Shown one piece after another: positions 2-14,867 of a stretch of 64,000 nucleotides of DNA. The stretch covers positions 64,001 through 128,000 of the IMG/VR virus record IMGVR_UViG_3300042298_003052. One strand, 5' to 3'. This stretch comes from a virus. A program made the position numbers and the translations under genes. The notes below the pieces were generated by a model, which did no database searches, was not told where the DNA came from, and worked only from the letters and a program-made list of their open reading frames with translations. Every line of letters begins with the position of its first letter. Position 1 is the stretch's first letter.

Positions 2-3000
2 GATGTTACCTGCATGATAATCTCCGTGAGTAACTTTTTTTTCGTGTAGAGACTTGAGAAGTTTAGCTGCACCTTCTACATATTGAATGATAACTCCTTG
101 GGTAAGCTCACCTGATTTTTCAAGTTCTTTAACCATGCTCCCCATATCCTTACCTTTTAATACTTCTTGCACTAATCGGTTATTTCCTACGTCATATACT
201 TGAGGAGCTAATTCTGGGCCTACTGCTCTAAGAGCTTCGGCCTCAGGCTGCATCATTTTCTTAGTTAAGAGATTTAATGGATAGGGAGCATCCTTAAATT
301 GTTCATAATCAACCCATTCGGGAGCACCTATTTTATTCATCTTAAAACCCTTTTCACGGGCTTGATCAGTAAAAATGATTCCGTTTACACCTTCACCGAG
401 TACTTGGGCCTCGGCAGGGTTTAGATAACCGGATACAGCGGTTCCTCGTTTGTGTTGTTTGTTTAATTGAGCTAAATATTCCATCTGCTCAGGTTTAAAT
501 ATAGGTGATTTCTCAGGAAAGTCAGGAGCCACCCCAAAGACTGAGTAGAATTTTTCCACCATATCAATGAGATTATCTGGATCTATTTCGTTACCGTTCT
601 TCAATGATTGAATTAACGTGTCATATATCGATAAAAACGCTTCTACATCTTGCTTTGCTTGACCTGTTAGATTTTTCATTGATTTTCTCAGATCAGCTTT
701 TAATTCATCATAGTTATACTCTATGTCAGACTTTTCTTGAGAATCGCCATAAGTTTTTCTTAATCGTCCCTCGGGAGTAACAAAAGTGTATTTGCCTGCT
801 TTTTGTTCTTCGACAGCAGTGGGATCTCCAATCAAGACTCCTAATGTTCGTCGCATTGACTCTTGTAATCCTACTTGTTCTCCAGGACCGGAGTACATCA
901 GATTATAAGCACGAACATTAGAAATCGAACGTTGTGTAGCCTGCTTTGCCAAAATGGGATCTATAACTTCTGGAGAAACAATCCGTTGTCTTACCTCATT
1001 AGGCTTAGTACCGCCATCGTATATTTCTCTTAAGATATCAGAGTTAAGTTTATTAGCGATCGCTTTAATTGTACCAGTAGGTAAAACAAATACTTCTTCT
1101 ATACTGGCTAACTCTTTAGTGATAGTATCTTTGTATTCGTCTATACGAGCCTTTATTTCCGTTTCATCTAGACCTAGATCTTTACTTTCTTTTTTAATTT
1201 TTTGTTGTTCCTCTATTTGAGATTTATCTGAGTACCTGTCAGATAAATTAATCAGAAATTCTGCATCGGCTGTTTTAGCAAAAGTTTTAATGTTTTCTAG
1301 TGTGATTTGCGACTCCGTTTTTTCTAATCTTAAGAACTTAGCTACTTCTTCTTGAACTTTAGGATTTTGTATAAATTGTCCTAAACTGTGTCCTGCGCCA
1401 GCACCAGGGATTATGGTTGTTGCTTTACCTGGACGCATAATACCTGACAAATTTTTAATAGTCCCTTCAGGAAGACCATAATCAGTCTCCATCTTTTTCA
1501 TTTCTTTTTCAAGCATTTTTTGATGTTGTTCTGACAATTTACTCATGTCAGAATAACGTTCACCAAATGATGCCAAAAATATAGGATCCATGTCACCTAC
1601 AAAGGCTTTAAAATTTTGAAGAGATGCTGTATTGGTTAAACCGTAAGTTCCCATTGTTAACCCAACACCTTTAGTGTTTTTAGCACCTCCTCGTTCAGCT
1701 ATAGCAGTGGCTTCTTCAGCAGCAAATGTACCACCAGATGTTCCAGCAAAAACGAATTTTTTACCGGGGTATTTTTTCTCGTAAGCCCTTCGTGTAGCTT
1801 CGAGTTTGATAGCGTCAGGGTTATAACCCGCATCTACGGCCATAGAAATAAGTTTTTCAAATTGAGAAGCTTCGTCACTCATTAATTGTTTCTCTAGATC
1901 GCTTCCAGGTGTTACTTGTCCTAATGAACGTAGTAAATCTAATAAAATACTTTTAAATTGTCTAATGGTTTGACCGGATTGTTTGTCATTAGAAAACTTA
2001 TTAGGAACAGGAACGGTAGCAACCTGTTCACCTAATAACTCTTTAAGAAGTACATTCGCGAAATAGGTATTGTCCCCAGGTCTTTCGTAATCATTACCAG
2101 GGATACCACCAGCGATTAATGCAATTGTTTCTTTGTCGTTGATACCTTCAATATCTGGGACATCAATCACTTCAGCTAATTGTTTGGATAGCTCCATAGA
2201 TTGAGCCAGCATTACACGTTTTTGAATACGATACGGTTGGGCGATTGCTCTAACGCCCACACCTGCCACTCTTCTACCACCTTCTGCTACCTCTTCCCAC
2301 GGTGGACGGATGTATTCGTCAATTCTAGATTTGGCACGTTTAGGATCGTTGTAAACTCGAACATCTTCTCCTACACCTACTAACAAATCTTCAAAAGTTT
2401 TTATGTTTCTAACTAACTTTCTGGGATCAAGAAAACTATCTAGTTTGCGTCCCAAATATGCTATGTCATCGCCTACTTCCTTTAAACCTCCTCTGTACCC
2501 AAAAGCTTCGGCTGTTACCATGGCAAGTCCTTTTGTTCGATTATATCCATATCGACCAAAATTATATCCAACTGTTTCGGCATCTGATCCTGTTTTACCC
2601 TCTATATATTTTTGAGCGCCTTTTGCAAAATCGTATGAGAGTGTTTGTCCCATACCTTCCACTGCGCCAGTGATAAACGTTTCAAAAGCCCTAGCTGGTA
2701 AACCAACAATTTTATCGACTAAAGTTTCTTTACTACTTGTATGGATAATTTTTGACATCTTCATCGGCATGTCGTCTTGAGACTTAATGTTCTGTTTGAC
2801 TGACATCGACAAAGCTGATATAGAATTGGCTAAATTCTCATTTGCTATTGTTAGACCTTTATTTTGTAGATGCAATTCTTGTAAAGAATTGTCCAACCGT
2901 AATAAAGATCTGCTTGGTAAGTAAGAATCTTCGTATGAGATTTCAGACGAAGACGTTTCTGTAGTGATTTTTACTTTCTTATCTGTTATACCATCGAATT

Positions 3001-3307
3001 GGTTTTTGAAATTACTCAATTCTTCTACATTAGTTTTTGGTGTTAACGGATTATCACCAAAATATTTGTTAACTTCTTTAAGGTGTTCACGCTTTCTCTC
3101 AATATGTTTATTTAATTTGGCTAAAGGTTCATGATCTACTGTTGGTTTTAATGTTTCTAGTTTAGTTTTACTTGTTATTCCTTTAATATTTCCTTCTATA
3201 TCCTTACCAGCTCGACTCGCAAGTTTTTGAATATCGGCAAGCTGTTTTGTAAACTTGGTATCGTCAAGTCCTAACTCTAAAATTAAACTCCCAAGAGTTG
3301 TTGCCAT
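2..3307 (-). CDS. Tail tape measure protein (partial, >=1102 aa, runs off window) with embedded alpha/beta-hydrolase and kinase-like domains
   Basis: Not in ORF track; read by hand, open from ATG 3307 to the edge. N-terminus MATTLGSLILELGLDDTKFTKQLADIQK is TMP-like; lies downstream of tail chaperone genes; motifs GTSGG, GDMDP, PGAGAGH, LGEGVNG, HGDYHAGNI. Confidence 0.85.
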   Translation of the reverse strand, partial: MATTLGSLILELGLDDTKFTKQLADIQKLASRAGKDIEGNIKGITSKTKLETLKPTVDHEPLAKLNKHIERKREHLKEVNKYFGDNPLTPKTNVEELSNFKNQFDGITDKKVKITTETSSSEISYEDSYLPSRSLLRLDNSLQELHLQNKGLTIANENLANSISALSMSVKQNIKSQDDMPMKMSKIIHTSSKETLVDKIVGLPARAFETFITGAVEGMGQTLSYDFAKGAQKYIEGKTGSDAETVGYNFGRYGYNRTKGLAMVTAEAFGYRGGLKEVGDDIAYLGRKLDSFLDPRKLVRNIKTFEDLLVGVGEDVRVYNDPKRAKSRIDEYIRPPWEEVAEGGRRVAGVGVRAIAQPYRIQKRVMLAQSMELSKQLAEVIDVPDIEGINDKETIALIAGGIPGNDYERPGDNTYFANVLLKELLGEQVATVPVPNKFSNDKQSGQTIRQFKSILLDLLRSLGQVTPGSDLEKQLMSDEASQFEKLISMAVDAGYNPDAIKLEATRRAYEKKYPGKKFVFAGTSGGTFAAEEATAIAERGGAKNTKGVGLTMGTYGLTNTASLQNFKAFVGDMDPIFLASFGERYSDMSKLSEQHQKMLEKEMKKMETDYGLPEGTIKNLSGIMRPGKATTIIPGAGAGHSLGQFIQNPKVQEEVAKFLRLEKTESQITLENIKTFAKTADAEFLINLSDRYSDKSQIEEQQKIKKESKDLGLDETEIKARIDEYKDTITKELASIEEVFVLPTGTIKAIANKLNSDILREIYDGGTKPNEVRQRIVSPEVIDPILAKQATQRSISNVRAYNLMYSGPGEQVGLQESMRRTLGVLIGDPTAVEEQKAGKYTFVTPEGRLRKTYGDSQEKSDIEYNYDELKADLRKSMKNLTGQAKQDVEAFLSIYDTLIQSLKNGNEIDPDNLIDMVEKFYSVFGVAPDFPEKSPIFKPEQMEYLAQLNKQHKRGTAVSGYLNPAEAQVLGEGVNGIIFTDQAREKGFKMNKIGAPEWVDYEQFKDAPYPLNLLTKKMMQPEAEALRAVGPELAPQVYDVGNNRLVQEVLKGKDMGSMVKELEKSGELTQGVIIQYVEGAAKLLKSLHEKKVTHGDYHAGNI

Positions 3308-3331
3308 TATAAAAAATGATATGTGTAACGA

Positions 3332-3373
3332 TAAAGTGTTTGGTTCAATTAATCACACGAACCAAACACTTTA
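3332..3373. terminator. Intergenic hairpin (14-bp arms) upstream of TMP
   Basis: taaagtgtttggtt ... aaccaaacacttta. Confidence 0.4.
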
Positions 3374-3413
3374 TTAGCTCTAAAGATCCGTGGTGAATCT
3401 ATCGTATGCTGTC

Positions 3414-3806
3414 TTATTGAGGTTTGACTTCAGGAACGACTTTAGGTTGTGGTTTTTTGACTTCTTTTCTCTTAAGGATAGAAGTAAAGTCTTCTCCAGC
3501 TAAAGCAGCTTTCACCGTTACAACGCACTTACCGCCTTCTATTGATGTCGTAACAGATTCGACACCCTCCAAGGTTACACCAGCGTGTTTAACGATGTCG
3601 CCTTCTTCATCATGAGAAAGAACAAAACGGCTATAAGGATTATAAACTTCTGATCCCAGTTCCGCTTTGAAAACGACATAAGGAACGCCGTCAACGTCTT
3701 CTTTTTCAACACTTGTTACATTATCAAGTACAGATTCTCCGTGACGAATCTGTTTACCGTCATCAGTATGGACAAGTTCAAATTTGCTTTGTAACAGATC
3801 AGCCAT
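3414..3806 (-). CDS. Hypothetical protein with tandemly duplicated ~45-aa beta domain
   Basis: Start MADLLQSK at 3806 has GAGGT RBS; FELVHTDDG..VFKAELG and FVLSHDEEG..TVKAALAG repeats. Confidence 0.7.
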   Translation of the reverse strand: MADLLQSKFELVHTDDGKQIRHGESVLDNVTSVEKEDVDGVPYVVFKAELGSEVYNPYSRFVLSHDEEGDIVKHAGVTLEGVESVTTSIEGGKCVVTVKAALAGEDFTSILKRKEVKKPQPKVVPEVKPQ

Positions 3807-4218
3807 CTTTGATATACCTCTCGCGTATCTCAGGAATAGTTTGTAGGAAAGCGGCAACAGCAGGAGGTATTCGCTTATCCTTAAGCAACCGATAGACAAT
3901 AGATCTCGTCTTACTACTAAATACAGTCTTCTCCGTGCCTTGTTTCATAAGATCAGGAAAAGGCACGATGTCTTCTGGCTTTATTTGTTTAGAGTCCTTA
4001 CCTGCAAAACCATTAAACAGACCAGACCAACCGATCGCATGAGTTATGGATTTTACATTGATGTCTTGTCTATACGCCTCCTCATAGAATTTAAGCGTCT
4101 CAAATATCAACGCTGGATTCTCATCACCAAAATGTTCGTAATCTAGACGGGGGTCGGTACAACCGAGATATTGGAGTCTGAGATATATGTCTCCCCACTC
4201 AATAATAGCGATTCCCCC
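3799..4218 (-). CDS. Tail assembly chaperone C-terminal extension (gpT-like), reached by -1 frameshift
   Basis: -1 frame is open from slippery GGGGGAA (4218-4212) through ORF 3799..4110. Confidence 0.8.
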   Translation of the reverse strand, partial: GGIAIIEWGDIYLRLQYLGCTDPRLDYEHFGDENPALIFETLKFYEEAYRQDINVKSITHAIGWSGLFNGFAGKDSKQIKPEDIVPFPDLMKQGTEKTVFSSKTRSIVYRLLKDKRIPPAVAAFLQTIPEIRERYIKDG

Positions 4219-5003: not shown

Positions 5004-5079
5004 TGGGAAAAATTAGAAACTTTATAGACAATAATATATTGCTCTTTTACTGTAAATAATAAAAATAGCGAAACACAGG

Positions 5080-5334
5080 TTAAACAACTTGGATGATCGC
5101 ACGTTTAGCAAAGTTTAATCCGTCATGATCTCCCATAGCGATCATAATAGACTCGTTAACCGCTTCTTGCGGAACCTCTATAGTGATAACTTCTTTTCCT
5201 TCTCCAGTTCTTAGTGGTACTATTGGTGGTGTATTCGCCGCATAGTAACCAAAGCCGTAATAAACACCTTCATCTGCTATACGACAATTAATAAGACATA
5301 TCGCAGTTCCCGAATATAAAATATCGTATTCCAT
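5080..5334 (-). CDS. Hypothetical tail-region protein
   Basis: ORF track; co-oriented in tail operon. Confidence 0.6.
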   Translation of the reverse strand: MEYDILYSGTAICLINCRIADEGVYYGFGYYAANTPPIVPLRTGEGKEVITIEVPQEAVNESIMIAMGDHDGLNFAKRAIIQVV

Positions 5335-5402
5335 CTCAGCGCATTAAAAACGTCCTCCACCAGTATAAACCAGTGAAGGACGTTCTGTATATAACCTAAC
5401 GC

Positions 5403-6359
5403 TTACGCGCCCAGAGGAGGCGTATAGACGTTAGACAGAGGATCGAACGCGCCAGTAGGTGCAGTATACTTGAAGGAGGAACCTTGGAACTGAAGGTCAG
5501 CCTGCACTGTAATAAGGTCTTGTACAGGTGAACTTTGATTACCAGAGGTCAAAATGGCAGCTCCAGCAAATTCTTCACCAAAGGGGCGTCTGAGGGTAGC
5601 GTAAATTTCAGAACCAAAGAAGCGATCGTCGTAAAGAATCTTCATGAGAAGATCAGCACCGGGATCGCCAATAATTCTTTGGAAAGTGAATGACATGGTT
5701 CTGTTACTACCTGTAGTAACCATTTCCATACCACTACCACTGAGGAAGTTGGCTGCGTCAACAGTCTTGGGCTGAGAAGACGGAGAAGCGTCAGTGGCAC
5801 CAGCGATGTAAACGGTAGCTGTAGTTTTAGCTGTATGGTTTTCAACAGCTAAAACAGTAGTAGGTTGAACTTGTAGACGTGTAGCGCCAGCAGGAGCAAA
5901 ATCGCTTACCGTTACACTATACGCACCATTGTTAAATGTCAGTTTCTCACCAGGATAGATATTGGTGGGAAGGGTCGTAACAGGTAACACTTCACTACCG
6001 ACAGTCAGCACAGAGGCGTCTACAGTACCAGCAGTGGAAGCAGGAATAGCTGCTGACAACGGGTACAAAAGAGTTACCGCTGTAGCACCAGTCACCGCTG
6101 TGCTAGTACGAGCTTCAACACCGTTTGCAAAACGAATCTTGGAAAAAGCAGGAATAGTGGCAGTAGCAGCAAGTGTCAACGAAGTGGCACCTTTAGCTGT
6201 AGGAGCTGCCGAAGTGGTAACGTTGATCGCAGCAGTAGCCGCTCCTACAGTAACAGTATATTCCGTAGGTACCCGAGTACCTTTAGGAAGAAGCACAAAC
6301 CGAAGTTCTGTAAATACGCTAGTGCCTCGTTCGCTAGCGTAGTTGATAATTTGTCCCAT
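5403..6359 (-). CDS. Major tail (tube) protein with inserted beta-rich domains
   Basis: Ala/Thr-rich; C-terminus GEEFAGAAILTSGNQSSPVQDLITVQADLQFQG is tail-tube-like; position. Confidence 0.8.
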   Translation of the reverse strand: MGQIINYASERGTSVFTELRFVLLPKGTRVPTEYTVTVGAATAAINVTTSAAPTAKGATSLTLAATATIPAFSKIRFANGVEARTSTAVTGATAVTLLYPLSAAIPASTAGTVDASVLTVGSEVLPVTTLPTNIYPGEKLTFNNGAYSVTVSDFAPAGATRLQVQPTTVLAVENHTAKTTATVYIAGATDASPSSQPKTVDAANFLSGSGMEMVTTGSNRTMSFTFQRIIGDPGADLLMKILYDDRFFGSEIYATLRRPFGEEFAGAAILTSGNQSSPVQDLITVQADLQFQGSSFKYTAPTGAFDPLSNVYTPPLGA

Positions 6360-9202: not shown

Positions 9203-11044
9203 TCAGGTAAGTGCTACATCAAACGTGTTGACCTTGAACACCCGTGTTTCCTGAGGAATGTCAGATGTATCATTGTAACCAGTAGCGTCAACGTCTAGTG
9301 GTCCGTGGGCTTCGTAGGATTGCCAAATGGCGCGATCCATCCGACCAAAGTCAGTCTTCTCATCAAAGAGAATCTGAACACCAGAGCCGCCGATACCACG
9401 ACCAGAAGCCATACCACCAAAGGCGTAAGAAGTACGAACCACAGAAGAGGTGCTGTCACCATTGGTTTCAGTAGCTACACCTTCTGCCCCAGTAGCATTA
9501 GCAAAGGCGTTAGTTTGCCAAATGTGGAAGCCCTCAAACAACCCTTGATAACCTTCAACCTTGATGTTTTCACCAGCAGGGTAATCACCAAGCATCATGT
9601 TGGTCATTTCCCGGATCTGTTCAACACTAGGAGCTTCAAAGTATTGGTTGACTAGAGAACTCTTCAGTTGAGACATAGCGGTAGGATTGGTAACAAGACC
9701 GTAGTTACCATCAGGTAGAGGCACAACGCGATCGTTCGATAGCCTCGTGTATACCTGATTAAGGAACTGCCGTGTCATAGTACCACCCACAGTCACAGAA
9801 GCCGCTGCTGTAACAATGTTATCGCCATTGTTATAGTAGTTCTTAGTGGTAGGTCTCCACTGTTCACGGATGACCAGATCTTCCCAGTTGTAATAGTCGT
9901 AGAAAAGATCTCTTTCCAAGATCCTCATCAGAGGCAACATGGCGTACTCTTCTACGAATCGAGGGATAGAAATAGGAGGCGCTTCCGAACGACCCCGACC
10001 GTACTCATTAAGAATCATCTTAACAAGGCCGGTACGAACCCGTTGATTACCAGCATCAATGGGAACGTAGGTATTAGATCCGGAGAGCAAACGTTGTTGC
10101 GAATTGGTCGCTACCTCAGGATAAGCAGCCCGAGGGATATCAACAACTTCGCCGTTACCGCGATCGTACCGGTGAACAGTTTGAGGGAATTGCCAGAATA
10201 CCAGTCCGGGACGGGAGCTAACCCGCATGATGGAAGATAGAACTTCCAAGAAACCACCAGGGACATCAGAGGAAGTGGTAGCAGCTCTCCGCTCAGACTC
10301 AGTGATCATCTTAGAACCACGGAATAAACCATGCTTCTTACCCATATCAGTCATCTCTTTGAGAAGAGATTTGTAGCTGCTATCATTGTACCGTTGTTCT
10401 GCCATCCACTGATCGATTTCGTGGGTGGGGTACACAGGCATCAAAGAACCGCCACTGGTAGTCCTATAGGTGACACCTAAACCGTCACGGATAGACATAA
10501 ACTCAGCTAGTCGTCCATCCAAACGATCGCCGTTAGGAGATGTACGAATATTAACATTAGGCATAGAGATTTCTTTCGCACCTTCTGGACGACCAATCAA
10601 CTTAGATAGACCTTCGAGAACCTTGTCAGATTCCTTAGCCTTATTCAATTCATCAGCCAATGTTCGATTTTGAACCTTAGCTTTCTCTAGCTCTTCCTGC
10701 AAAGGAGCGATCGCATTTTCGACGGCTGTTCTGACAAACTGTTGTAGAATTTCGGCAGTGATAGCAGGCTCAGATTTTTCTACAACGGCTGTTTCCTGCT
10801 CAATTTCTAGTTCAGGTTCAACAGCTTTTTCGACTGTTTCTTCGTCTTGATCGCTAACTTCTTCAACTTCTCGTTCATCAACAGAATCGTTGACAACCAT
10901 GCTGGAGGAAAGGCCCAGGGCCTTCGCAAAGCCGTTATTATGAGCTTGAACTCCAGATTTTTGAAGGTTGATAGATAGTTTCATCTGTTCTTCTTCGCTG
11001 AGGTTACCCAGCTTGATAATTTCACGTAAGGAGTTTTTGCCCAT
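9203..11044 (-). CDS. Major capsid protein with N-terminal acidic/coiled-coil scaffold region
   Basis: GGAGGTG RBS before MGKNSL; scaffold-like N-terminus then capsid-like body ending TDFGRMDRAIWQSYEAHG; synteny. Confidence 0.8.
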   Translation of the reverse strand: MGKNSLREIIKLGNLSEEEQMKLSINLQKSGVQAHNNGFAKALGLSSSMVVNDSVDEREVEEVSDQDEETVEKAVEPELEIEQETAVVEKSEPAITAEILQQFVRTAVENAIAPLQEELEKAKVQNRTLADELNKAKESDKVLEGLSKLIGRPEGAKEISMPNVNIRTSPNGDRLDGRLAEFMSIRDGLGVTYRTTSGGSLMPVYPTHEIDQWMAEQRYNDSSYKSLLKEMTDMGKKHGLFRGSKMITESERRAATTSSDVPGGFLEVLSSIMRVSSRPGLVFWQFPQTVHRYDRGNGEVVDIPRAAYPEVATNSQQRLLSGSNTYVPIDAGNQRVRTGLVKMILNEYGRGRSEAPPISIPRFVEEYAMLPLMRILERDLFYDYYNWEDLVIREQWRPTTKNYYNNGDNIVTAAASVTVGGTMTRQFLNQVYTRLSNDRVVPLPDGNYGLVTNPTAMSQLKSSLVNQYFEAPSVEQIREMTNMMLGDYPAGENIKVEGYQGLFEGFHIWQTNAFANATGAEGVATETNGDSTSSVVRTSYAFGGMASGRGIGGSGVQILFDEKTDFGRMDRAIWQSYEAHGPLDVDATGYNDTSDIPQETRVFKVNTFDVALT

Positions 11045-11187
11045 GCGGCTCACCTCCATCTCCATAAAAGGGGTCACAAACTAGCTTATTTATACAAAAA
11101 GAAATATATTCGCATGATAGCGATTAAGATATACTTTATTAGCTATCTTGTTGTACTATGAATAGTTGTTCCTAATAGATATTCGTC

Positions 11188-12835: not shown

Positions 12836-13156
12836 TTAATCTATGGAAATGTTTCCAATCTTCTCACTGTCAGAAGCCCATGGAGCTGTAGAAACTTTTG
12901 AATGTTTCGCTTTGATAACTATAGTGAAACGATGATCCTCAACGAACCAGATTGACCAACTATTATTAGCGGCGACACTACGAAAACGATAAAAGTATTT
13001 CTTTTGATCGCTGTCCCAACGTCTATCCATCTCTAATATCTCAGCCTGCAATGGACAGAATATGGACATGCTCCCATCTGGAGTTCGTAACTGTCCGTTC
13101 AAAAACTGTATACAATCGCCTATAGTTAATTCGCTAATAATCCGTTTGTTAAGCAT
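12836..13156 (-). CDS. Hypothetical protein
   Basis: ORF track. Confidence 0.5.
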   Translation of the reverse strand: MLNKRIISELTIGDCIQFLNGQLRTPDGSMSIFCPLQAEILEMDRRWDSDQKKYFYRFRSVAANNSWSIWFVEDHRFTIVIKAKHSKVSTAPWASDSEKIGNISID

Positions 13157-13206
13157 TTCGGTTTGTGATATACTTCCTTAAGTATAGCCTATCGGAGTGT
13201 TAATAT

Positions 13207-13371
13207 ATGGTTTTAACCGATGCTATTTTAGAAGAAATCCAATCTTGTAAAGACACGTTAAACAATTTGTCACCAAATGATAACAGATCGTTTTGGGTAT
13301 CACGTCATTTAGCCAGACTTGTATTGGAATTGGAACTTACCAAAAACCATGTTAGAACTTTTGATTATTGA
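13207..13371 (+). CDS. Small hypothetical protein (54 aa)
   Basis: MVLTDAILEEIQSCKD..; GGAG upstream; below ORF-track cutoff. Confidence 0.45.
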   Translation: MVLTDAILEEIQSCKDTLNNLSPNDNRSFWVSRHLARLVLELELTKNHVRTFDY

Positions 13372-13561
13372 TCTAAACACGATCGCTATTGTGTTTGTTG
13401 TTAAAGAAGACCAGCGATCGCTAGATAGTTCTATAGAGGAAGAACTACAAATAGCGATCGCTGATTTTAAGGCGTCATCGGATTGTGTACGGGTCGAAAC
13501 ACATATTGTTCGGCCCTCTTTCTTAATCTTTCACGACGTTTGCCAACCTCCTGATAATTAG
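13349..13561 (+). CDS. Hypothetical protein
   Basis: ORF track, ATG start MLELLIID. Confidence 0.45.
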   Translation: MLELLIIDLNTIAIVFVVKEDQRSLDSSIEEELQIAIADFKASSDCVRVETHIVRPSFLIFHDVCQPPDN

Positions 13562-13721
13562 ACATCATCAACAAAAATTCTCTATTGTGCATTTTAGTGA
13601 ACCTCTTACGATCGTTTACACGATCTTAACATGGGGAGGAGATCTAATAGACAAGAAAATTGTTTTATGTTTTTCAAAAATATCAACAGCCATCTGATCT
13701 AAGATAGAACGCTACAACGGT

Positions 13722-14033
13722 TTAGCGATTCTCAGTTTCTAAAGAATCAGAGCCAAATTTATCAGCGAGAAGATATAAACCGCCCATACTTAACCAATCC
13801 CAGGCGTCTACCATGTAAAGAGAAAGATAAGGAGGTCCACCACGACTTTGCATCTTGGCGTAACCATATATGGTTTCTCCATTTTTCATTACGATACGAT
13901 ATAGAAACTTGCCTGTGTGAGGCACATAAGCAGGTTCCACATATAACACGTCAGGGTGAATAGCCCGTAGATGTGCGGGTTTATGACTGGCTTGGACGAC
14001 AGATTTTAGGATGCTTATCTTTCGCTGATCCAT
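13722..14033 (-). CDS. Hypothetical protein
   Basis: ORF track. Confidence 0.5.
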   Translation of the reverse strand: MDQRKISILKSVVQASHKPAHLRAIHPDVLYVEPAYVPHTGKFLYRIVMKNGETIYGYAKMQSRGGPPYLSLYMVDAWDWLSMGGLYLLADKFGSDSLETENR

Positions 14034-14120
14034 GACTCTACCTAAACCATAGTTAGATTATCTGATCTAAGACGCGATCTACAAATAGCAACAAACCGAA
14101 TTAACAAGTACAGAATACCG

Positions 14121-14867
14121 TTAACCGCCAGGATAAATCCATCTGGCATCACCAGATCTATCATCAACGTGTAGAAACTGCATACTGTTACTATATGCTA
14201 AACCACCTCGCCATTCATCATTAAGAAGTCTATAAAGTTCTAAAGGCGATCGTCCAGGAATGGCTATATCTAACGCTTTGCCTTGAACGTGCATACTAAA
14301 AGGGGCACCTCCAACACGGGCATTAGTCTCAGGATCTCTGTAACCACTACGGATGATAATGGATTTTCCAAAATGATCGCATATCTTTTGAGCTTTTATA
14401 GAAATACTTATTAAATTCGCCACTACAGACACATTAGCAGGACGACGATAATTACCAGAAGGTGTAAAATGTAATACTTCACCCCATGTAATATTAGGTG
14501 CCTTGCGATCGTGTATAGGTTGTCCTGACCAAGTTCTAACGCTGTTACCAGGTAAAAGAAATGATACACCGAGATCCTTAGGCTTACTTACAGAAGAATC
14601 TATAGGTTTATTGTCCATACTAAAACCGCTTTGATCTTCTATAGCACCTTTCCAGACATACCAAGTGTTTTTGCCACTTTTGTGAATAGTTTTAGGATCA
14701 ATTTTTTCAATATCTAACGTGAAGACAATGTGACTCCCTTCTTCCCTATATGCTGCAATAGGAAAAGTCTTACCACGTTTGGCAATAGCGAGTTCTTCTT
14801 TACCAATAGTGCTGCTATCTGCGGCACTAGGTTTTAGATACGTATCTGAAGTTGTGATAAGTTCCAT
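14121..14867 (-). CDS. Peptidase M15 family endolysin with N-terminal accessory domain
   Basis: SGYR..N..VGGA..SMHVQGKALDI..FLHVDDR zinc-peptidase motifs. Confidence 0.85.
   Translation of the reverse strand: MELITTSDTYLKPSAADSSTIGKEELAIAKRGKTFPIAAYREEGSHIVFTLDIEKIDPKTIHKSGKNTWYVWKGAIEDQSGFSMDNKPIDSSVSKPKDLGVSFLLPGNSVRTWSGQPIHDRKAPNITWGEVLHFTPSGNYRRPANVSVVANLISISIKAQKICDHFGKSIIIRSGYRDPETNARVGGAPFSMHVQGKALDIAIPGRSPLELYRLLNDEWRGGLAYSNSMQFLHVDDRSGDARWIYPGG

Follow-up and report, generated by a model that had tools for sequence, protein, structure and literature searches.

Does a giant phage tape measure protein carry a genuine lipid- or ester-cutting enzyme and, if it does, where would that enzyme act during infection? 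The question is raised by a minus-strand gene at the start of the window, the 64,000-nucleotide stretch analyzed here, which corresponds to bases 64001-128000 of IMG/VR virus record IMGVR_UViG_3300042298_003052 (139,448 bp, with direct terminal repeats and rated complete). A sequence-only reading of this DNA had claimed a complete Ser-Asp-His α/β-hydrolase inside the tape measure protein at positions 1320-2140. The sole open reading frame (ORF) of at least 60 amino acids (aa) overlapping these positions on either strand was the minus-strand frame 2..3307, whose 3' end is open. When read from the upstream 14 kb, the complete frame was found to be one ORF of 5072 codons (L003:2089-17307, minus strand); its first 1102 codons occupy 2..3307 of the window and the remainder lies outside it (G000:C1:52089-64001).

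Judging from conservation and the structural model, we are confident that aa 372-668 of this protein form a genuine, catalytically equipped α/β-hydrolase domain. A conserved serine hydrolase of the lipase/cutinase type is present in a tape measure protein, and therefore the phage probably injects an ester-cutting enzyme. The whole chain of this argument, ending in an injected lipid/ester hydrolase that would act at or beyond the cytoplasmic membrane with Ser524, Asp574 and His640 as catalytic residues and Gly400-Gly401 as the oxyanion loop, is in our estimate evenly balanced between right and wrong.

Catalytic residues and fold of the hydrolase domain

The hydrolase domain (domain 1, ABH1; aa 372-668) is encoded at 1304..2194 on the minus strand and was modeled as a six-stranded minimal α/β-hydrolase fold with two helical insertions. 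Five motifs had been assigned to it, and when the codons were checked all five were found at the residues given, on the minus strand and within window positions 1320-2140. These are the strand TIALIA with Gly400-Gly401 (TIALIAGGIP, aa 394-403; 2105..2128) at the position of the oxyanion-hole loop, the nucleophile elbow G522-T-S524-G-G526 (FAGTSGG, aa 520-526; 1730..1744, with the Ser524 codon at 1736-1738), the predicted catalytic acid Asp574 (FVGDMDPI, aa 569-576; 1586..1588), the predicted catalytic base His640 (GAGAGHSL, aa 635-642; 1388..1390) and, in the translation of frame 2..3307, NPKVQEEVAKFL (aa 648-659), which covers the C-terminal helix PKVQEEVAKFL (aa 649-659; 1331..1363). The GxSxG motif alone is weak evidence, because it occurs 17 times in the window (127,996 six-frame positions). 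It is the conservation of the residues and the fold around them that raise the finding above chance.

Conservation was followed in relatives taken from a full HMMER scan of 1.84 billion representative proteins. ABH1 had 113 relatives at E ≤ 0.001, of which 47 passed ≤ 1e-10 and 27 passed ≤ 1e-30; the majority of the 113 were 2000-5000 aa long. A MAFFT alignment of the 38 rows spanning the whole domain (own row included, 21-54% identity to it) had Ser524, Asp574, His640, Gly401 and Gly526 invariant in all 38 rows, so that the conservation of the triad in homologs, which had been named beforehand as a test, held throughout. Gly400 was conserved in 36/38 rows and Gly522 in 35/38. The smaller alignment A1 (24 rows, mean column identity 33%) contained seven invariant columns: Gly401, Gly494, Asp498, Ser524, Gly526, Asp574 and His640. 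Two of these, Gly494 and Asp498, belong to the stretch GYNPD (window ~1814-1828), which opens the helix preceding the nucleophile strand, and are as invariant as the triad. A profile search found 186 domain copies in 114 proteins; the nucleophile column held Ser in 156 of the 163 aligned copies (4 Gly and 3 Cys in the others), the acid column Asp in 112 of 113, and the base column His in 71 of 71.

These columns also bear on the idea that the domain lacks catalysis and is a degenerate hydrolase fold, retained in the tail as a structural or spacer module that helps packing, sets length or binds chaperones. The role of tape measure proteins is mainly structural, and the serine is lost in some copies, namely the seven just mentioned and the third copy in protein gp048 of a phage described below, both of which would suit such a module. 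Set against this, the triad together with the elbow and oxyanion glycines makes up five of the seven invariant columns of A1 at its 33% mean identity, a pattern typical of selection on catalysis and not on packing. We consider an inert module highly improbable.

The second named test, structure prediction, was carried out on aa 372-668 using AlphaFold2 with A1 and yielded a model with a mean predicted local distance difference test (pLDDT) score of 88.4 and a predicted template modeling (pTM) score of 0.86. Model residue numbers plus 371 give the protein numbering. Strands were predicted at model residues 23-28, 58-62, 146-152, 174-179, 195-200 and 259-262, and helices alternate with them. The Gly-Gly pair stands immediately past strand 23-28, which is the TIALIA strand; Ser153 lies between strand 146-152 and helix 155-168; Asp203 lies three residues past strand 195-200; and His269 is in the loop past strand 259-262. 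All four catalytic positions fall in 10-residue blocks with a mean pLDDT of at least 91. Such a placement of strands and catalytic residues is what defines α/β hydrolases in the Ollis description of the fold. The model therefore has α/β-hydrolase topology with the residues after the expected strands, and the terminal helix that had been called usual for this fold corresponds to model helix 278-288.

One of the helical insertions, aa 442-491 (1835..1984, minus strand), lies between the second strand and the helix preceding the nucleophile strand and is a candidate lid. It was modeled as helices 71-90, 99-104 and 111-120 with lower pLDDT (67-85), and it is mostly missing from the compact second copy of the domain in an hhalign alignment. 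In relatives P0019 and P0027, a kinase domain is found inside the hydrolase domain, between the N-terminal strands and the nucleophile part, approximately at this insertion.

Foldseek searches of the PDB with the model of copy 1 matched the A. fulgidus lipase 2zyr_B (E 5.3e-4) and the F. solani cutinase 3qpa (E 9.9e-4, template modeling (TM) score 0.55 by target length). Among the matches listed, 42 of 44 were named as lipases, cutinases, thioesterases, dienelactone hydrolase or serine hydrolases; the other two were Nir2 domains. Among predicted viral structures (BFVD), the best matches were to segments of long phage proteins, among them one with the name 'Tape measure domain protein', and generic α/β hydrolases came next.

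The same protein contains a paralogous, compact second copy at aa 2085-2290 (L003:10438-11055, minus strand), in which the corresponding motifs are IIFVSSGF, FVGHSAGG (Ser2197), GEGDPL (Asp2245) and KGHFSPHY (His2263). BLASTP aligned 88 residues of the two copies at 28% identity (E 9e-6), matching elbow to elbow and Asp to Asp, and hhalign of the two family alignments gave a probability of 99.95% (E 1.7e-38, 198 columns). Copy 1 differs from copy 2 by two insertions, one past the second strand and one between Asp and His. The copy 2 model (pLDDT 87.1) had its strands in the same order as copy 1. Among its Foldseek matches, Bacillus subtilis lipase A ranked first, with E 1.2e-6 and a target-length TM of 0.60-0.65; this protein is labeled 'a minimal alpha/beta hydrolase enzyme'. 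A rumen lipase was also among the best matches of the copy 2 model, of which 275 were at E ≤ 0.001. The Pfam matches of copy 2 were weak, all below the cut-offs, and were to lipid-acting families: DUF676 (0.0027), Tle1-like (0.029), PGAP1, LCAT, Lipase_3 and Tle3 (0.14).

Searches of family libraries gave no match to Pfam or PHROG on aa 340-700 of the in-window protein and none to NCBIfam on aa 372-668. Likewise, tblastn of the domain, and also of a divergent family member, found no match in 50,697 phage records. Of the long relatives, 16 had precomputed Pfam assignments, and in these the tape measure family PF20155 was present in 16/16 and an α/β-hydrolase family in 0/16. When 24 family members were scanned singly, weak Pfam matches were obtained to Abhydrolase_3 in seven (best E 1.1e-4), Cutinase in five (best 2.4e-3), Lipase_3 in one and Hydrolase_4, the serine aminopeptidase S33 family, in two. 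The family profile searched against PDB sequences gave non-significant matches (all E ≥ 0.0012), the best of them to a designed repeat protein; the 25 PDB chains listed included 7 cutinase or carbohydrate esterase family 5 (CE5) chains, 4 esterases, 2 of the 'alpha/beta hydrolase family' and 8 of polyketide/peptide synthases. In one of these matches the cutinase elbow GYSQG aligned on the GtSgG elbow (4oyy, E 0.017). As we read them, the weak sequence matches all point to ester- or lipid-acting α/β hydrolases, and a protein-language look-up of the domain returned 'putative alpha/beta hydrolase' (0.90). The domain is a new, unannotated α/β-hydrolase family in tape measure proteins.

The tape measure protein, its domains and its relatives

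The 5072-aa protein is a true tape measure protein. Its core matched Pfam TMP_3 (PF20155) at aa 2808-2994 with 82.1 bits against a cut-off of 41 (E 5.4e-23), and TIGR02675 matched aa 2882-2956 with 51.1 against 21.35. The core alone, used in tblastn, led to annotated tape measure genes in 1212 phage records, and hydrophobic segments are present on either side of it (aa 2787-2806 and aa 3017-3047). With the conservation, the model topology and the Foldseek matches, PF20155 and TIGR02675 substantiate the claim of a complete Ser-Asp-His α/β-hydrolase-type domain inside a tape measure protein. An identity look-up of ten relatives gave single-member clusters without a protein name in every case; among the 16 long relatives the sole source name was 'tape measure protein', from a cyanobacterial metagenome bin. 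The protein contains no cysteine. Its relatives have 0.11% Cys, and 66 of the 114 proteins examined (own protein included) are Cys-free. Such a lack of cysteine is consistent with a chain that is unfolded in transit and folds once it has arrived.

The multi-enzyme character that the sequence-only reading had ascribed to the protein, with further domains expected off-window, was borne out by the full ORF, which holds two kinase domains, the second hydrolase copy and an SLT domain, all on the minus strand. Kinase domain 1 (~aa 1014-1146) has its start at window positions 2-268 and continues off-window, with the catalytic loop HGDYHAGNI at aa 1094-1102; it matched Pkinase with 55.4 bits against a cut-off of 31.7 (best stretch aa 1044-1127) and RIO1 over aa 1014-1146. 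Kinase domain 2 (~aa 1293-1385) carries the motif HGDYHPGNV and completes a tandem pair (aa 1014-1385, L003 ~13150-14270) on which the Pkinase, ABC1, RIO1 and APH models all scored above their cut-offs. An HExxH stretch (HEIRH) at aa 2524, in the region aa 2380-2620 (L003 ~9448-10170), gave a weak match to the metallopeptidase family DUF6782 (E 0.005) and was found in a single one of the 113 relatives. An SLT lytic transglycosylase domain (~aa 3957-4017) was detected with 21.5 bits against 21.3 when scanned alone; it lies within L003 ~5038-6150 (aa 3720-4090), as do the M23-like motifs HAGIDW and FNHLE at aa 3762 and 3821. The M23 reading consists of these motifs only, and aa 3720-3870 of the protein had no Pfam match even at E ≤ 1; PF01551 was present in 6 of the 16 long relatives, and PF00959 and PF02557 also occurred among relatives.

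The order of these domains was surveyed, as the sequence-only reading had suggested, by using parts of the protein as queries against 121 collected proteins (own included). The tape measure core was found in 75 of them, and 36 of the 46 proteins without it were shorter than 1500 aa; these short core-less proteins may be fragments or split forms. Hydrolase copies were N-terminal of the core in all 75 proteins with a core and C-terminal in none, and the kinase was N-terminal in all 15 in which it occurred and C-terminal in none. The wall-cutting domains had the opposite placement, with SLT C-terminal of the core in 12 of 12 proteins and N-terminal in 0, and the M23-like domain C-terminal in 5 of 5 and N-terminal in 0. 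The hydrolase domain is present once in 57 proteins, twice in 44, three times in 11 and four times in 2.

The 624-aa major capsid protein (window 9203-11077, minus strand) matched only two phage records over residues 129-623, both of Cylindrospermopsis phages, at 40% identity; residues 1-128 had no match in phage records. Cylindrospermopsis phage Cr-LKS4, which shares the capsid protein, had no giant tape measure gene in the 32-kb stretch examined. Pseudanabaena phage PA-SR01, a 137-kb siphovirus, was considered as a relative and set aside, as nothing tied it to the window. A pattern-limited genome scan (one genome per species, 6-row alignment) found the domain at no fewer than three loci, all cyanobacterial among the matches listed: Leptolyngbya sp. 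PCC 7375, a Cyanobacteria bin and a Dolichospermum bin. Among 301 genomes from the phylum of Leptolyngbya, the sole phylum sampled, five had a match at E ≤ 1e-6, each in an open frame of 1647-3854 aa. Eight IMG/VR contigs carry the hydrolase domain.

A search with copy 2 found one isolate, Aphanizomenon phage vB_AphaS-CL131 (MG209611). The ABH1 profile matched two of its proteins, gp048 (1811 aa, E 7.6e-49) and gp047 (330 aa, E 4.8e-17), and gp048 was found to contain two intact GHSAG copies and a degenerate third without the serine. Both genes carry a hypothetical annotation, and the 2131-aa tape measure gene gp049 follows directly downstream of them (gp047-gp049, L010:9761-22621). The best BFVD matches of copy 1 have lengths of 330 aa and of 905 + 906 aa, which equal those of gp047 and gp048, so they are probably the same proteins. 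The word 'hydrolase' has no occurrence in the main text of the CL131 paper (PMC6293099). The capsid matches, the cyanobacterial loci and CL131 make a cyanobacterial host plausible, in line with the earlier suggestion, as far as sequence relationships can tell.

The presence of the CL131 modules in separate ORFs indicates that separation of the parts is tolerated, and this could favor a different function, in which the domain is a serine peptidase or self-processing module that cuts the giant polyprotein or host proteins and frees the kinase and cargo domains after ejection or in tail assembly. The protein is indeed a train of separable domains, the α/β-hydrolase fold includes peptidases, and Hydrolase_4 gave its weak matches in 2 of 24 members. 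However, the domain is structurally closest to lipases, cutinases, esterases and thioesterases rather than to peptidases, and the peptidase members of the fold are larger than the six-stranded minimal form. Moreover, the protein has the separate HExxH stretch, and self-cleavage would not call for two to four copies in one protein. We judge a peptidase unlikely, and both it and the inert module less likely than an injected lipid/ester hydrolase.

Within the window, the hydrolase domain is preceded by a conserved N-terminal segment (aa 1-339; 2291..3307, minus strand), which phmmer found in 51 of 113 relatives and which had a weak match to a PHROG tape measure family (phrog_58, E 0.035). A hairpin with a perfect 17-bp stem (3331..3374, minus strand) was detected as an opposite-strand self-match in the stretch that separates the tape measure start codon from the preceding ORF, approximately 25 nt upstream of that codon and outside the hydrolase domain. 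Its RNA fold has -29.4 kcal/mol and a z-score of -3.9, and 0 of 200 shuffles folded equally well. Directly upstream of the tape measure gene are two small minus-strand ORFs, 3414-3899 and 3799-4110, which are in different frames and overlap by approximately 100 bases; this position is the usual site of the frameshifted tail assembly chaperone pair. ORF 3414-3899 had no family match. Further upstream, a match to a major tail protein was found at 5403-6359 (phrog_820, E 2.8e-5).

Possible roles of the domain during infection

In phage TP901-1, by one published description (PMC5099701), the C-terminus of the tape measure protein lies in the Dit-Tal cavity at the tail tip and its N-terminus near the terminator/connector. 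If the same orientation applies, the C-terminal wall-cutting half should leave first and the N-terminal half last. We propose that the Cys-free tape measure protein would be expelled through the tail with its tip-proximal C-terminal half in front, and that this half, with its SLT and M23-like parts, would open the peptidoglycan. Next would come the N-terminal half with its two hydrolase copies and two kinases, which would fold at or beyond the cytoplasmic membrane; the need of the kinases for ATP suggests that this half reaches the cytoplasmic side. There the hydrolase may cut an ester bond, most likely in a host lipid (phospholipid or galactolipid) or in another acyl ester, and such cleavage would help the channel to form and the DNA to enter, or would condition the cell. 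A lipid/ester hydrolase is favored because the nearest structures are lipases, cutinases and esterases.

The same fold neighbors (cutinases, CE5 enzymes and lipases) would also suit the role that the sequence-only reading had suggested, an esterase that acts outside the cell or in the outer envelope, where it would strip acyl or acetyl groups from the outer membrane, lipopolysaccharide, sheath or polysaccharide to let the tail penetrate. Relatives come from cyanobacterial genomes and cyanophages, cyanobacterial hosts have thick layered envelopes, and virion-borne deacetylases are known on tail spikes. In contrast, the domain order is a mild argument against this site of action: the hydrolase copies are tip-proximal of the core in 0 of 75 proteins, whereas every SLT and M23-like domain is. 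An enzyme that leaves the tail last, having been buried in it, cannot be the first to reach the outermost layers, and the half that contains it also holds ATP-dependent kinases, for which no ATP supply is expected outside the cytoplasm. An outer-envelope role fits the domain order less well than an injected hydrolase does, and we rate it as rather unlikely.

Several points weigh against the proposal of an injected lipid/ester hydrolase. Only two Foldseek matches of copy 1 were at E ≤ 0.001, with TM 0.41 by query length. The domain itself matched no Pfam family even at E ≤ 1, and a PDB sequence search with aa 372-668 gave a best E of 0.63, to unrelated chains. The choice of an ester or lipid substrate expresses a nearest-neighbor preference, because the fold class includes peptidases, thioesterases and acyltransferases. 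The orientation of the tape measure protein is borrowed by analogy from another phage. The lumen of a tail tube is about 4 nm wide, and a folded domain of approximately 300 residues is unlikely to fit into it, so that an unfolded or extended state must be assumed. Finally, the analysis demonstrates the fold, the order, placement and conservation of the triad, the paralogous copy, the tape measure identity and the domain polarity, whereas we infer catalysis itself, ejection and refolding, the substrate and the compartment, and equally the presence of the N-terminal half in the virion, its ejection and its arrival in the cytoplasm.

A broader proposal, which we offer tentatively and with clearly less confidence than that of an injected hydrolase as such, is that the whole protein may be a polarized effector-delivery polyprotein, a phage counterpart of multi-effector toxins. 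Its tip-proximal half would open the wall, and its head-proximal half would be a string of enzymes aimed at the host. These would be injected before the DNA into the cyanobacterial cytoplasm, where the hydrolase would attack lipids of the cytoplasmic or thylakoid membrane or switch off host defense. The cargo would comprise two lipase-like hydrolases, two protein kinases and perhaps a metallopeptidase, and its passage through the tail in unfolded form would account for the absence of cysteine. If this is true, the hydrolase domain would found a new family of injected effectors, exchangeable between the fused form of the present phage and the split form of CL131.

If the domain is active, long-tailed phages of filamentous cyanobacteria would inject lipid- or ester-cutting enzymes together with kinases, and the known set of virion-delivered enzymes would be widened. 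A recurrent unannotated stretch in at least 121 giant metagenomic proteins and in the isolated bloom cyanophage CL131 could then also be named.

Comparison with known systems

Bacillus subtilis lipase A (LipA) and the family I.4 lipases (PDB 1i6w; rumen lipase 6nkc) resemble the domain in their six-stranded minimal fold, in the Ser-Asp-His order and in the short Ser-Asp and Asp-His spacings. LipA, the best structural match of copy 2, was also listed for copy 1 (3qzu_A). However, identity to LipA in the structural alignments of copy 2 was 13-15%, and the elbow of LipA is A-x-S-x-G. Membership in family I.4 was rejected, as no Pfam lipase family scored above its cut-off and the elbows here are GTSGG and GHSAG. 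The minimal I.4 fold is lid-less, whereas copy 1 has two insertions and a possible lid; LipA is a small secreted enzyme, whereas the present domain is embedded in a 5072-aa tape measure protein.

Fusarium solani cutinase and other CE5 enzymes (PDB 1cus, 3qpa) are likewise small α/β hydrolases with the nucleophile past the central strand, and a cutinase was a top Foldseek match of copy 1. In contrast to the domain, whose oxyanion loop is GG and whose protein has no cysteine, cutinases are stabilized by disulfides. Cutinase membership (PF01083, CE5) was rejected, the sequence scores being below the cut-off.

The Tle lipases of the type VI secretion system are GxSxG α/β hydrolases that are delivered by a contractile or tail-like machine and attack the membrane lipids of the target bacterium. 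Tle1 and Tle3 are a functional analogue of the role proposed here, with a different carrier and architecture. Membership in the Tle1-like and Tle3 families was rejected, since copy 2 reached only 14.2 and 12 bits against cut-offs of 27. Mycobacteriophage LysB, as presented in two published accounts (PMC6116114, PMC12952132), is a phage cutinase-like serine esterase that acts on host envelope lipids. LysB is a soluble late lysis enzyme and not part of the virion; its BFVD rows were weak matches to the domain (E 0.024 and 0.042), and LysB membership was rejected. GDSL lipases belong to another fold class. Those described in tail-fiber ORFs (PMC7468147) were considered as a precedent and set aside, as they sit in another part of the virion. 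Hydrolases have also been described as separate phage genes (PMC6893657). In the literature covered, which is thin for subscription journals, no α/β-hydrolase, lipase or esterase domain was described in a tape measure protein.

Enzymes within tape measure proteins include the muralytic domain of T5 Pb2, the Rpf-like motif of mycobacteriophage TM4, and lysozyme and M23 domains elsewhere. Each of these is housed in the tail within the tape measure protein and is set free at infection, as is proposed for the present domain. To our knowledge, the known tape-measure enzymes are peptidoglycan hydrolases. The present protein and its relatives are like these muralytic tape measure proteins in that they also carry wall-cutting domains, but they differ in having a lipase/esterase-type domain, which occurs one to four times per protein and invariably lies N-terminal of the core, across from the wall-cutting domains. 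CL131 gp047 and gp048 are true homologues of this domain, but they are separate ORFs and are not fused to the tape measure protein. We rate the hydrolase domain as a new class of enzyme carried by tape measure proteins.

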